DNA of 64,000 nt from assembly GCA_038231135.1 (NCBI GenBank), contig JBBRLX010000007.1, positions 65,475 through 129,474 of the forward strand. Reading direction: 5' to 3'. The notes beneath the pieces were generated by a model. That model ran no database searches and was not told the DNA's origin. It saw only the letters and a program-made list of their open reading frames with translations. Below, piece by piece: positions 21,634-30,334 of this stretch; the first letter of the stretch is position 1, and each line of letters opens with the position of its first letter. The position numbers and the translations under genes are program-made. The stretch comes from Candidatus Eiseniibacteriota bacterium (lineage in GTDB: Bacteria; Eisenbacteria; RBG-16-71-46).

Positions 21634-22224
21634 CTAGCAGACCGGCACTCCGCGTTCCACGGATTCCGGCGGCGTGCGCACACCACGATGCGAGGTCCAC
21701 CACGCGGCGACGTATCGCGCCAGGATCAGCCCGACGGCCGCGCCCACCACCACGTCCGAGAACCAGTGGCGGTCGAGATAGATGCGGGAACCCGCCATGC
21801 AAACGGCAAGTATCCACATCGGCACCGCGAACCGGCGGGAGCGCCGCGCGAGCACCGCGGCGATCGCGAACACGTTGGCGGAGTGGCTCGACGGATAGGA
21901 CGCGTTGCTGCGCTTGTGGTCGCCGTCGGGCCGGGTGCGGAACGTCAGCCGCTTCACGGCCTCCACCACGGCGTTCACCGGCAGCAGCGTGGCGACACTG
22001 AGCTGGGCGGTTTCGACCCCGGCCGGTCCGCCGAACACGCAGAACGCCAGCAGCACGCCCAGCGTCACGTCCGGACGCCCGAGGCGGTTCGACAGCAGCT
22101 GCGCCGGCCCTTCGAGCCACGGCTGGCGTGCGTGCTGGACTGCGTCGCGCACCGGCACGTCGAGCCATCCCGCGGCGGGGCCGAGCGCCGCGAGCCCCAG
22201 CAGCAGCAGCAGCGTCCGGATCAC
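21634..22224 (-). CDS. PAP2-family (type 2 phosphatidic acid phosphatase) membrane phosphatase
   Basis: The product has the PAP2 motifs KRLTFRTRPDG, SYPSSHSANVFA and SRIYLDRHWFSDVV. The GTG start at 22224 overlaps the batD TGA stop (GTGA). Confidence 0.8.
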   Translation of the reverse strand: MIRTLLLLLGLAALGPAAGWLDVPVRDAVQHARQPWLEGPAQLLSNRLGRPDVTLGVLLAFCVFGGPAGVETAQLSVATLLPVNAVVEAVKRLTFRTRPDGDHKRSNASYPSSHSANVFAIAAVLARRSRRFAVPMWILAVCMAGSRIYLDRHWFSDVVVGAAVGLILARYVAAWWTSHRGVRTPPESVERGVPVC

Positions 22225-24560
22225 AGCGATGCCACGCGCCGCAGCACATCGGGCGGCAGCCAGCCCTCGACCCCGGGGCCGACCCACACCTGCTCGCGGC
22301 CGCCGCGCGCCCCGCGGTCGCGGACCACGCGCCCGGGCTCGAGGTCGATGTCGCTGCCGCCGAGCCGCACTTCGCGCATCACCACCGCCTCGTTGCGGCC
22401 GGCGACGAGCGCATCGCGCACCGGCACCGCGGCGGCGCATGCCAGCAGCAGCACGGCGCACACGGCGGCGGCGGCGCGCCGCAGCCACAGCCAGCCGCCC
22501 GCGAGACCCGCGGCCAGCGCCAGCATCACCCACTCCACGCGCCGCACGGGCACGGCCGGCGGCGTGGCGCCCGCGAGCCCGCCGGCCTCGCGCACGCGCT
22601 GCTTCACCCATTCCAGCACCGGGTCGCGGGCGTCGTCGCGCTCGCCGCGCAGCACCCACAGCGATGCCGCCGCCACGTCCTCGTCCTCGAGCCGGCACCA
22701 CGCGAGCCGGGCCGCGAGCCCGGGACTGCGCACACCCTGGTGCCACAACTCGCGCCACCCGCGCTCGGCGCCGGCGAGGTCCGAGGCCCGCGCGCGCTGG
22801 GCCGCCGCGGCGGCCGCCGGGCGCAACGCCAGGGCGCGAAGGTCCGCACCCGGCCAGCCGCCGGGCAGCGCCCACACCGCGCACCCGGCGGCCACGATCG
22901 CCAGCGCGGCGCCGGCCGCGGGCCTCAGCCATGCCGGCGGCGCTGAGCCGCCGGGAGCGGTCGCCAGCGCCTGGAGCAGCTTCACCCGCACCGGCTCGGG
23001 ATTCACGCGCGCCCCGCCATACCGCGCCGCAGCGACCTCGGCGCGGAGCCCGGCCACATCGGTGCCGCGCGCCGCGAGCCATTCGCACGCGCGATCCGCC
23101 GCCAGCCACAGCGAATCGCCGGTGGCCGCGCGCAGCGCCGCCACGAGCCGGTCGACCGCGTCGCGGTCCTGGGCCCCGCTCCGCCGCTCGGCCGGGCGCA
23201 ACAGCATGATCGCCCAGGCCAGGCACGCGCCGGCCACGGCCGCCCGCCACGGCTCGGCCGGGCGCGCGCCGGGGTCGAGCGGGTGCTCGTCGAACACCTC
23301 GGGCCGCATCGCCGACGACTGCGCCGCATTCGGCGCCGCGGCCGCGGTGACCTCGACCGTCAGCGGCGCCAGCTCCGCCACGCGATAGCCACCCGTCCGG
23401 GGATCGAACCATGCGAACGGGGGCGGTACCAGCGTCAGCGTGCCCACCGAACGCGGCAGCACCGTCCAGCGGAACGACCGCCGGCCCGGCGCGACGGTGC
23501 CCGGCGCGCCGAGGCTGTCGTCGACGGTGCTGCCGAACACCTCGAAGCCGGGCGGCTGGAACTCCGGAGTCTTGATGAGCGGCAGATTGCCGGACCCGCG
23601 CACGTCGAGGCGCACCGTGACCGGCTGATCCTGCGGCGTGCGGGCACGATCCACGCTGAAGCGCTGAACCAGCGTGCCGACGGCACCGCCGAATCCCGCG
23701 GGCGCACTGGCCGGCAGCGGCCGCACGTGGACCGCGACCGGCGGGCTCTGGATTTCGAGCTGGCGCCGCGAGCTGCCGCCGAACCAGCCGAACGGATCGA
23801 ACGGCGTGCCGCCCGCCTCCACCACGAGCATCGCCGACGCCGCGCCCACCGTCTGGTTGCCTGCGGCGAGCGGATAGAGCCGCGTGCGCGTCTCGGTGAC
23901 GAGCACCCGTGCGCCGCTCTGGACGCCGTAGTACGACTCGGGCTCGCTGGGCCGCTCCGCCCAGAACCCGGGCGTGGGCGGCGGCGAATAGCGTGGGTCC
24001 TCGGCGAGCGGCGTCCGCTGCACCAGCCGCACCCGCAGCAACGCGGGCTGGCCGACCCACGGATCCCTGGGGTTGACCTCCACGAGCAACGCCGCCGGCG
24101 CATTGGCTCCGCGCGCCGTCTCGGGCATGACGTTCGGCTGCCCGCCGCCTGCGCCCGGCCCCGGCGCCTGGCCCGCGAGTGCCGTGATCGTGAACGCCGG
24201 ACACAGGTACGCCTGATCGCCCACGCGCACCTGGATCGGGCCCACCGTATAGGTGCCGGCCACGTGCGGGACCAGTTCGTAGCGAAACGCCACCTCGCTC
24301 GAACTCTTGCCGTTGACCCAGGAGAAACTCTGCGAACGCCCGCTCGACGTGACGTCGAGGTTGGCGGGCGGCTCGAACGCCGGTTCCGCGACGCCGCCCC
24401 CCGCGCCGTGCACCGTCACCTCGAGCGTGGCCGACTCGCCGAGCGGCACGGTGTGGCGCGACACCTGCGCCTCGACCGTGACCTGCGCCGCGGCCGGGTG
24501 CGCGAGAAACACGACGCCGAGGCTCGCCGCCGCGAGCATGGCGACGAGCGTGCGGCGCAC
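22221..24560 (-). CDS. batD: BatD-family aerotolerance protein, with a signal peptide, a BatD domain and a long TM-containing C-terminal extension
   Basis: The signal peptide is RRTLVAMLAAASLGVVFLAHPAAAQ, and the gene sits in the last position of a moxR-DUF58-batA-batB gene order. The start is taken at GTG 24560, with an alternative ATG at 24539. The ~240 aa of track ORF 22221..25283 upstream of that start are run-on. Confidence 0.65.
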   Translation of the reverse strand: MRRTLVAMLAAASLGVVFLAHPAAAQVTVEAQVSRHTVPLGESATLEVTVHGAGGGVAEPAFEPPANLDVTSSGRSQSFSWVNGKSSSEVAFRYELVPHVAGTYTVGPIQVRVGDQAYLCPAFTITALAGQAPGPGAGGGQPNVMPETARGANAPAALLVEVNPRDPWVGQPALLRVRLVQRTPLAEDPRYSPPPTPGFWAERPSEPESYYGVQSGARVLVTETRTRLYPLAAGNQTVGAASAMLVVEAGGTPFDPFGWFGGSSRRQLEIQSPPVAVHVRPLPASAPAGFGGAVGTLVQRFSVDRARTPQDQPVTVRLDVRGSGNLPLIKTPEFQPPGFEVFGSTVDDSLGAPGTVAPGRRSFRWTVLPRSVGTLTLVPPPFAWFDPRTGGYRVAELAPLTVEVTAAAAPNAAQSSAMRPEVFDEHPLDPGARPAEPWRAAVAGACLAWAIMLLRPAERRSGAQDRDAVDRLVAALRAATGDSLWLAADRACEWLAARGTDVAGLRAEVAAARYGGARVNPEPVRVKLLQALATAPGGSAPPAWLRPAAGAALAIVAAGCAVWALPGGWPGADLRALALRPAAAAAAQRARASDLAGAERGWRELWHQGVRSPGLAARLAWCRLEDEDVAAASLWVLRGERDDARDPVLEWVKQRVREAGGLAGATPPAVPVRRVEWVMLALAAGLAGGWLWLRRAAAAVCAVLLLACAAAVPVRDALVAGRNEAVVMREVRLGGSDIDLEPGRVVRDRGARGGREQVWVGPGVEGWLPPDVLRRVASL

Positions 24561-29345: not shown

Positions 29346-30334
29346 CAGGGCACGCGCACCTGCTCCAGGATGCGGCGGGCGATCTCCTCGCCGTCGATGC
29401 CTTCGGCTTCGGCCTCGTACGACACGTGGATGCGGTGGCGCAGGACGTCGAGCGCGATGTGCTTGACGTCCTCGGGCAGCACGTAGGCGCGGCCGTCGAG
29501 CAGCGCCAGCGCCTGGGCGCCCTTCACCAGGAACAGCGTGGCGCGCGGGCTGGCGCCGAACGTCAGCAACGCCTCGAGCTGGAGCCCGAACGCGGCCGGG
29601 TTGCGGGTCGCGCTCACCAGGTCGAGCACGTACTCCTGGATCTTGTCGTCGACGTAGACGTCGCCGAGCGCGGCACGCGCGGCCAGCACGTCGTCACGCG
29701 TCGCGCGCGGCTGGAGCTTGGGCAGCGCGGCGAGGCCGGCGCGGCGCAGGATCTCCTTCTCCTCCGCGCGTTCGGGATACCCCACCTTCACCTTGAGCAT
29801 GAACCGGTCGCTCTGGGCCTCGGGCAGCGGGTAGGTGCCCTCCTGCTCGACCGGATTCTGCGTCGCCAGCACGAGGAACGGCTCCTCGAGGGGATGCGTG
29901 TCGTCGCCGAGCGTGACCTGCTTCTCCTGCATCGCCTCGAGCAGCGCCGACTGCACCTTGGCCGGCGCACGGTTGATCTCGTCGGCGAGCACCAGGTTCG
30001 AAAACAGCGGCCCCTGCTTGGGACTGAATGTGCCCTCGCGGGGATTGAAGATCAGCGTGCCCGTGAGATCGGCGGGCAGCAGGTCGGGCGTGAACTGGAT
30101 GCGGCGGAACTTGAGCGACAGCGAGTCCGCGAGGCTCTTGACCGCCAGCGTCTTCGCGAGCCCGGGCACGCCTTCGAGCAGCACGTGTCCGCCGGTGATG
30201 AGCCCCACCAGCAGCCGGTCCACCATGTACTTCTGTCCCACCACTGCGCGGCCCACTTCCTCGCGCACGCGGGCGAGCGTGAGCCCGGCGGCTTCGATGC
30301 GGGCGGCGGCGTCCCGGCTCGTTTCGACGGTCAT
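29345..30334 (-). CDS. moxR: MoxR-family AAA+ ATPase
   Basis: The product has a Walker A motif (GVPGLAKT), a Walker B region (LADEINRAPAKVQSALLEAMQE) and a MoxR C-terminal domain. The ATG at 30334 (MTVETS) was verified. The first 11 aa of the track ORF are run-on. Confidence 0.9.
   Translation of the reverse strand: MTVETSRDAAARIEAAGLTLARVREEVGRAVVGQKYMVDRLLVGLITGGHVLLEGVPGLAKTLAVKSLADSLSLKFRRIQFTPDLLPADLTGTLIFNPREGTFSPKQGPLFSNLVLADEINRAPAKVQSALLEAMQEKQVTLGDDTHPLEEPFLVLATQNPVEQEGTYPLPEAQSDRFMLKVKVGYPERAEEKEILRRAGLAALPKLQPRATRDDVLAARAALGDVYVDDKIQEYVLDLVSATRNPAAFGLQLEALLTFGASPRATLFLVKGAQALALLDGRAYVLPEDVKHIALDVLRHRIHVSYEAEAEGIDGEEIARRILEQVRVP

Follow-up and report, generated by a model that had tools for sequence, protein, structure and literature searches.

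The 64,000-nucleotide stretch of Candidatus Eiseniibacteriota DNA analysed here (the window; contig JBBRLX010000007.1) carries on its minus strand, at 22221-30334, what is very probably the form that the Bat (Bacteroides aerotolerance-type) MoxR-DUF58-VWA operon takes in Candidatus Eisenbacteria, with BatB and BatC merged into one protein, BatD and BatE merged into another, and both mergers fixed in the lineage. For the bat genes of Bacteroides fragilis, an aerotolerance phenotype has been reported. The Eisenbacteria operon is collinear gene for gene with that of the Bacteroidales, running moxR, DUF58, a third membrane gene, batA, batB, batC, batD, batE and PAP2. Both fusions are lineage-wide and known elsewhere, and the peculiarity of this locus is that one operon combines the two, a state fixed in a candidate phylum.

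Gene content, order and relatives of the operon

The GC content of the window is 68-78%, and 73-78% at the operon, so that wrong frames stay open over long distances and mechanical lists of open reading frames (ORFs) are full of spurious ones. Genes were called from a plot of codon-position GC by frame (GC3 frame plot) together with the mapping of start codons, and all coordinates are window positions. The genes and the one promoter-like site are as follows.

30396-30423, minus strand: promoter-like site, GGGACA-16 nt-TATACT, ~60 nt upstream of the moxR ATG
29345-30334, minus strand: moxR, MoxR-family AAA+ ATPase, 329 residues; PF07726 (AAA_3) 3e-64, AAA_lid_2 1.4e-22
28464-29345, minus strand: DUF58 protein without a transmembrane helix, 293 residues; PF01882 8.4e-74, VWA_2 4.5e-14
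27454-28467, minus strand: third gene, membrane protein, 337 residues; weak match to PF14316 (DUF4381), 6.5e-4
26480-27454, minus strand: batA, membrane VWA protein with a metal-ion-dependent adhesion site (MIDAS) motif, 324 residues; VWA 8.5e-21
24661-26448, minus strand: BatB-BatC fusion (VWA and TPR), 595 residues
22221-24560, minus strand: BatD, including the fused BatE module, 779 residues; PF13584 1.1e-25
21634-22224, minus strand: PAP2 lipid-phosphate phosphatase, 196 residues; PF01569 6.6e-17

A preliminary description of this DNA had identified a Bat-type MoxR-VWA operon in this gene order, which was right, as the Pfam and NCBIfam domain content and the structure matches agree with it. 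It had also placed seven genes within 22221-30334; only six ORFs, all in the same direction, lie there, and PAP2, coupled as well and thus the seventh, lies just outside that span. The GC3 plot and the start mapping agree with the common direction that it described, and the junctions with the tight coupling. The DUF58 start shares the moxR stop (TGATG), the DUF58 and third genes meet at ATGA, the third gene and batA at (G)TGATG, and BatD and PAP2 at GTGA, a 4-nt overlap. The BatB-C start follows the end of batA by 31 nt (GGAGG-N6-GTG). The junction of BatB-C with BatD is ambiguous: BatD may start at GTG 24677, which is the database call and gives 818 residues, or at GTG 24560, which gives 779, the former adding 39 residues. 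The promoter-like site is the sole sigma-70-like match in 19500-31500, where 0.2 would be expected by chance; it is a match to a consensus that may not be the promoter type of this host.

MoxR scores 215 bits against PF07726 (cutoff 27), has a Walker A motif (GVPGLAKT) and a Walker B motif (LVLADE), and shares 79-86% identity with the MoxR proteins of related loci. The DUF58 protein, by analogy with its family, would be a cytoplasmic VWA-like partner or adaptor of MoxR. DxSxS MIDAS motifs are found in DUF58 (residue 84), in BatA (DISPS, residue 90) and in BatB, so the motifs earlier ascribed to the BatA-like and BatB-like proteins are present in both. BatA matches the NCBIfam BatA model NF047508 (1.5e-59, under its Leptospira-specific cutoff). 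Its closest solved relative is 4rck (3e-38), the BatB structure 3ibs reaching only 3.6e-23, and this preference for 4rck over 3ibs makes the assignment of the two VWA proteins as A and B consistent.

The third gene encodes a signal or anchor segment, a periplasmic part of ~150 residues, one transmembrane helix (27865-27915) and, at the C-terminal end, a putative DUF4381-like cytoplasmic tail. It sits where the Bacteroidales and Legionella operons also have their third gene, and the architecture agrees too. An orthologue in a related locus (L002) has a precomputed PF14316 match, and the tail of the third gene of Bacteroides finegoldii is found by BLASTP with an E value of 0.008; BLASTP against the Legionella DUF4381 protein gave no significant similarity. 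The positional counterpart in B. finegoldii (L133, 3843-4931) is annotated as 'BatD family' and has a weak PF13584 match (2.4e-4), and because of this the third gene may hold a single BatD-like Ig domain.

The Bacteroidales comparators were found by tblastn in chromosome pieces filed as plasmids. In Parabacteroides distasonis, all nine modules, including the trailing PAP2, have the same order and domain content as in the window. The differences lie in how the modules are divided into proteins. In the Bacteroidales operon of the Bacteroides fragilis batI type, batB and batC are separate, as are batD and batE, whereas in Eisenbacteria each pair is one ORF. Thus the operon of P. distasonis ends with a BatD of 603 residues, a BatE of 255 residues (TPR and SH3_3, 1.6e-6) and PAP2, and B. 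finegoldii has separate BatD and BatE proteins of 606 and 278 residues. Prevotella nigrescens and Prevotella sp. F0039 (oral taxon 299), like Eisenbacteria, have a single protein of BatD, TPR, transmembrane and SH3 parts (858 and 870 residues) followed by PAP2, but their batB and batC are still separate. The sequences have diverged, BatD being ~24-28% identical between Eisenbacteria and Bacteroidales, and the Eisenbacteria host has a GC content of 73%.

Outside the Bacteroidales, a fusion of batB with batC has been published for Leptospira biflexa (Stewart et al. 2012, PMC3557215), and bat fusions have also been described in Francisella tularensis Schu S4, Borrelia burgdorferi and Spirochaeta thermophila (PMC3557215). 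The L. biflexa locus (batA, fused batB-C, batD) shares the VWA-TPR fusion with the window, and the NCBIfam Leptospira models for BatB and BatC both match the window protein. However, L. biflexa belongs to another phylum, has no BatE module recorded and no PAP2 linkage reported, and the window proteins score below the Leptospira cutoffs. An arrangement of the BatD-BatE type has been published for Borrelia bb0170 (PMC5700661); the bb0170-bb0176 locus of B. burgdorferi, in which the BatC-like TPR protein BB0171 is separate, is likened to the window here by description and not by sequence.

The BatB-BatC protein and the continuity of both fusions

The preliminary description had BatB and BatC in one ORF with no stop between the VWA and TPR parts, and this is true; the last transmembrane (TM) helix of the VWA part, at 25480-25530, lies at the junction where it had been placed. 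From its N-terminus, the protein consists of two TM helices, the VWA domain (~25615-26202), TM3 (25480-25530), an Arg-rich loop (25372-25479), TM4 (25321-25371), the TPR domain (~24937-25305), a Pro/Gln-rich disordered linker (24778-24951) and a conserved C-terminal helix. The VWA part matches VWA_2 (8.8e-20). Residues 83-278 match the BatB of Bacteroides thetaiotaomicron (3ibs) at 6e-30, and residues 382-500 match designed consensus TPR proteins at ~1e-5, both by phmmer against PDB sequences. The VWA fold superimposes on 3ibs with a Foldseek E value of 7e-15, a template-modelling score (TM-score) of 0.86 (target-normalised) and 30% identity. Among the NCBIfam models, BatB matches at 3.7e-28 and BatC (NF047507) at 6e-9, the latter below its cutoff; the BatC part is also found by BLASTP with the P. 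distasonis BatC (8e-6), and TPR matches from Pfam are recorded for many BatB-C homologues. The AlphaFold2 model has a mean predicted local distance difference test (pLDDT) score of 83, with 95-98 in the TPR part of ~3.5 repeats.

The loop between TM3 and TM4 is disordered and holds nine Arg or Lys residues versus one Asp or Glu. Hydrophobicity and the positive-inside rule together predict that it is cytoplasmic. The VWA domain of Borrelia BB0173 is reported to be periplasmic (PMC5700661). On these two grounds, the positive-inside loop and the location of the BB0173 domain, we infer that the VWA and TPR parts of BatB-C are on the same side of the membrane, both in the periplasm, with TM4 in the place of the BatC signal peptide.

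Two further observations concern this protein. The linker between the BatC TPR domain and the C-terminal helix is a 58-residue low-complexity stretch rich in Pro, Gln and Ser (QSQSQQPRKNPQPQ..., 24778-24951), for which disorder is predicted (pLDDT <50); the homologue alignment is also rich in Pro and Gln here, with little else conserved. At the batB-C junction, ARAGORN calls a 94-nt 'tRNA-???' with a four-base anticodon (25444-25537, minus strand), which we regard as a false positive in GC-rich coding DNA: it has no Rfam match, a folding z-score of +0.89 and no counterpart in 27 related loci.

Both fusions recur throughout the lineage. A scan of species-representative genomes yielded 46 loci, nearly all titled Candidatus Eisenbacteria, and frame continuity was assessed by tblastn in 38 species-level loci for BatB-C and in 43 loci for BatD with its C-terminal extension. 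BatB and BatC share a single stop-free frame in 37 of the 38, and BatD runs on into the extension in all 43. The best 120 of 474 BatB-C homologues are all full length (569-612 residues), as are the best 120 BatD homologues (710-818 residues). The preliminary description had asked for an independent assembly to be searched for a stop at the BatB/BatC junction; the Logan assembly of SRR19962015 has no mismatch to window positions 14661-29135 (0 in 14,475 nt), covers both fusion junctions and shows no stop. GC3 remains above 0.9 in one frame through both junctions. The BatB-C (595 residues) and BatD (818 residues) of the window are themselves recorded in the protein database, on an NCBI contig of 138.8 kb; an exact look-up of its MoxR gave no record. 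A closed 4.16-Mb Eisenbacteria metagenome-assembled genome (MAG) is syntenic, with moxR, DUF58, DUF4381, VWA, a VWA/TPR protein of 581 residues, a BatD of 772 residues, PAP2 and PTS-EIIA, and the locus as a whole is likewise syntenic in the 46 species-level loci.

The one exception is locus L010 (JBIOKD010000004.1, 5908-10044), in which BatB and BatC are in different frames. The BatB frame of this locus stays open for 1378 residues, into BatD, and because of this long run the split is most likely due to an insertion or deletion (indel) in the Arg-rich linker, introduced in the assembly of that MAG, and not a genuine separation of the two genes. That one or both fusions might be an artefact of assembly or sequencing, through a lost stop or an indel in GC-rich sequence, is an idea to which the long-open wrong frames of such DNA and the split frames of L010 lend some colour, but the continuity across the loci, the full-length homologues and the identical Logan assembly lead us to reject it, with the GC3 signal and the 1378-residue frame leaving it practically no probability, and to regard the fusions as the norm of the lineage. 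The preliminary description had presented them as atypical and informative oddities, which they are not, being nearly universal in the lineage and already published in other taxa.

A contig of 353 kb from the sample of the closed MAG (L049, ENA ERZ25039492 contig_31845) contains the same locus with SHMT and the bat genes split into pieces in the gene calls, and looks like an error-rich assembly. Its seemingly stand-alone 209-residue 'BatE-like' gene is an artefact.

BatD and its C-terminal module

The assignment of the product of 22221-24560 as BatD is supported by PF13584, which matches in two stretches with 90.5 bits (cutoff 24.1) and is found in all 120 listed BatD homologues. By BLASTP, residues 92-404 match the BatD of Prevotella nigrescens at 2e-21. 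The protein divides into two parts.

22926-24560, minus strand: BatD proper (~residues 1-545), with a signal or anchor segment, BatD (DUF11-like) Ig-type repeats, TM1 and a cytoplasmic four-helix region
22221-22928, minus strand: BatE-equivalent module, with TM2, TPR (~22587-22853), a TM3/TM4 hairpin, an SH3-like beta domain (~22236-22391) and the stop

The length of the first part fits that of a canonical BatD, which has 543 residues in Legionella and 603 in Parabacteroides distasonis. BatD had been described as a protein of ~780 residues with a C-terminal extension, and so it is; the extension, though, is not one of ~200 residues with one extra TM helix but of ~235 residues, with three extra TM helices, a TPR module and an SH3-like domain. 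It is kept in all 120 listed homologues, with four further hydrophobic segments. In an AlphaFold2 model of the last 349 residues of BatD (mean pLDDT 93.4), the order is TM1, the four-helix cytoplasmic region, TM2, five antiparallel helices, the TM3/TM4 hairpin and a small beta domain. In a comparison with PDB sequences, the last 50 positions of the extension profile match SH3 domains, with marginal values (2ega 1.3e-3, p47phox 7e-3).

We compared the extension profile (38 sequences) with BatE. A metagenome scan with the BatE of P. distasonis returned almost only near-identical P. distasonis copies, and as it added no diversity, the BatE profile consists of four Bacteroidales sequences. The hhalign comparison of the two gave a probability of 70% (E 4.1e-5) over 189 collinear columns, from the first TPR to both C-termini, with a shared GW-P motif at the end; the same collinear alignment to a single BatE sequence has an E value of 2e-3 and a probability of 13.5%. 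Since the length (235 versus 255-278 residues), the domain order, the position between BatD and PAP2 and the hhalign result agree, we judge, with moderate-to-good confidence, that batE has not been lost and is instead fused to batD. The earlier statement that no batE-like gene follows batD is misleading for the same reason, BatE being present as a BatD fusion. Two stand-alone 'BatE-like' proteins proved to be artefacts: one (P0250) lies on a fragmented, frameshift-ridden contig, and the other (P0262) lies 60 nt from a contig end.

Several points weigh against reading the locus as a Bat operon with both pairs merged. What ties the genes into one operon is their overlaps. The third gene scores 20.5 bits against PF14316, below the Pfam cutoff of 27.2, and all NCBIfam Bat models score under their Leptospira-specific cutoffs, as expected for another phylum. 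For the Bat proteins of leptospires, a part in oxidative defence had been proposed only, and experiments had not shown a specific function (PMC3557215); the functions suggested for the Eisenbacteria bat genes are drawn by analogy from knowledge of the family. In the extension, Pfam and NCBIfam call no TPR or SH3 in the 260-residue and 66-residue C-terminal pieces, and the homology statistics for BatE are moderate (70% with four templates; SH3 at ~1e-3).

The last two points could also be taken to mean that the C-terminal 235 residues are a lineage-specific domain unrelated to BatE and that batE has truly been lost, for which the lower probability with a single BatE and a database search with the extension profile, whose 25 matches are all fragments from the same lineage, also speak. 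Against this stand the same order of TPR, TM hairpin and SH3 in a module of similar length, its same position between BatD and PAP2, and the alignment that runs collinear to both C-termini on the shared motif. Moreover, BatD, TPR and SH3 parts are joined in one protein of 858-870 residues in the two Prevotella species. We consider the loss of batE improbable, and the extension is treated below as the BatE module of a BatD-E protein.

PAP2, the proposed working of the system and its meaning

The PAP2 gene was correctly reported to follow the operon, but it is no substitute for batE: BatE is present, and in the bat loci of Parabacteroides and Prevotella, too, PAP2 is what normally comes next. 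The catalytic motifs of its product are intact, namely KRLTFRTRP (KX6RP) at residue 91, PSSH at residue 111 and SRIYLDRHWFSD (SRX5HX3D) at residue 146. The gene follows BatD in ~40 Eisenbacteria loci, and a PAP2 gene also stands right after the bat genes in Parabacteroides distasonis and the two Prevotella species (10588-11280 of L051, 9896-10597 of L134 and 9965-10582 of L135), the genes beyond PAP2 differing between Eisenbacteria, Parabacteroides and Prevotella. It is absent from the bat operons of Bacteroides finegoldii and Legionella. The window PAP2 is 31% identical to the Bacteroidales ones over 80-90 residues, which is the generic PAP2 core only, and its NCBIfam matches are weak and mixed (UppP, SepP, LpxE and PgpB types).

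The surroundings are conserved well beyond the operon. Synteny with locus L002, whose BatB-C is 59% identical, covers window positions ~14661-33000 and includes, upstream of the operon, SHMT and a small gene of 135 residues and, downstream, PTS-EIIA-2, a Zn-ribbon protein, CCA/poly(A) polymerase, polyprenyl synthase, RsfS, ArgRS and PfkB. With synteny this wide, the adjacency of PAP2 within Eisenbacteria alone is weak evidence of a functional linkage.

A further parallel comes from Porphyromonas gingivalis, in which batA is PG1582/PGN_0529 and batC is PG1584/PGN_0527 (PMC4222909), and lpxF, encoding the lipid A C4'-phosphatase, is PG1587/PGN_0524 (PMC11784228). From this numbering, lpxF appears to be the gene after batE, a placement read from locus tags and not from the genome. 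LpxF is a PAP2 protein with KX6RP, PSGH and SRX5HX3D motifs, whose place in the tag order corresponds to that of the window PAP2; the likeness is one of motifs and position, and not of LpxF sequence. In the literature that we searched, no paper links PAP2 with BatD or aerotolerance, and none pairs PG1587 with PG1582, PG1586 or batE.

These observations bear on an alternative in which the system serves chiefly the maintenance of the outer membrane or lipid A and not oxygen tolerance, with PAP2, as an LpxF-like lipid A 4'-phosphatase or an undecaprenyl-PP phosphatase, being a working part that the Bat complex organises or regulates. The 4-nt overlap of PAP2 with the last bat gene, the retention of its position in Eisenbacteria, Parabacteroides and Prevotella despite different downstream genes, and the tag order in P. 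gingivalis (PMC4222909, PMC11784228) would all fit, as would the envelope and morphology defects named in the title of a study of a related operon in Rhizobium leguminosarum (Vanderlinde et al. 2011, listed in PMC5700661). On the other hand, the B. finegoldii and Legionella operons do without PAP2, the window PAP2 shares only the generic core with the Bacteroidales proteins and has weak and mixed NCBIfam matches, the whole Eisenbacteria neighbourhood is syntenic, and the P. gingivalis adjacency comes from tag numbers. We hold this alternative to be possible but doubtful. Somewhat less likely still is that PAP2 is a functional member of the system, with Bat acting on outer-membrane lipid A or another envelope lipid phosphate rather than on oxygen itself; in that case, the stoichiometry and topology of the complex would be set by the two fusions, which would pair the VWA of BatB with the TPR of BatC and the Ig repeats of BatD with the TPR and SH3 of BatE, all in the periplasm. 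The linkage of Bat with PAP2 or LpxF is thus a lead and not a finding, and it is the only mildly new point here.

For the Bat operon with its two merged pairs, a working scheme can be drawn from the family. MoxR (MRP-type) ATPases, acting with VWA partners, are described in the literature summarised in PMC11834572 as assembly or remodelling chaperones; stress resistance and virulence phenotypes are given there for Francisella and Riemerella, and the phenotypes of other taxa are, according to PMC3557215 and PMC11834572, mixed. In Eisenbacteria, a cytoplasmic MoxR hexamer with its DUF58 adaptor would spend ATP on assembling or remodelling a complex that BatA, BatB-C and BatD-E form in the inner membrane; these three and the third gene product are putative inner-membrane proteins. 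A protein-interaction scaffold for envelope and stress tolerance would be made up of the MIDAS, TPR, Ig-like and SH3 domains in the periplasm, and PAP2 would dephosphorylate an envelope lipid phosphate of the lipid A or undecaprenyl-PP type. In each fusion, the downstream partner may have exchanged its signal peptide for an internal TM helix, ahead of which comes a cytoplasmic segment; this would be the Arg-rich loop in BatB-C and the four-helix tail of BatD in BatD-E. With an internal TM helix in the role of a signal peptide, the BatC TPR and the BatE TPR and SH3 domains would stay in the periplasm with the VWA and Ig-like domains.

The discovery value of the locus is small, the operon being ordinary and the fusions flagged at the outset routine. 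It does extend a familiar but poorly understood type of operon, intact, to an uncultured phylum of the Fibrobacteres-Chlorobi-Bacteroidetes (FCB) group. The fusions provide independent evolutionary support for the view that BatB and BatC, and likewise BatD and BatE, work next to each other on one side of the membrane. The presence of PAP2 after the bat genes in two phyla, and of lpxF, by tag order, in P. gingivalis, hints at a tie between Bat and the remodelling of envelope lipids. If PAP2 were indeed a functional member, the Eisenbacteria set would be a convenient minimal, four-protein version of the system for structural work.

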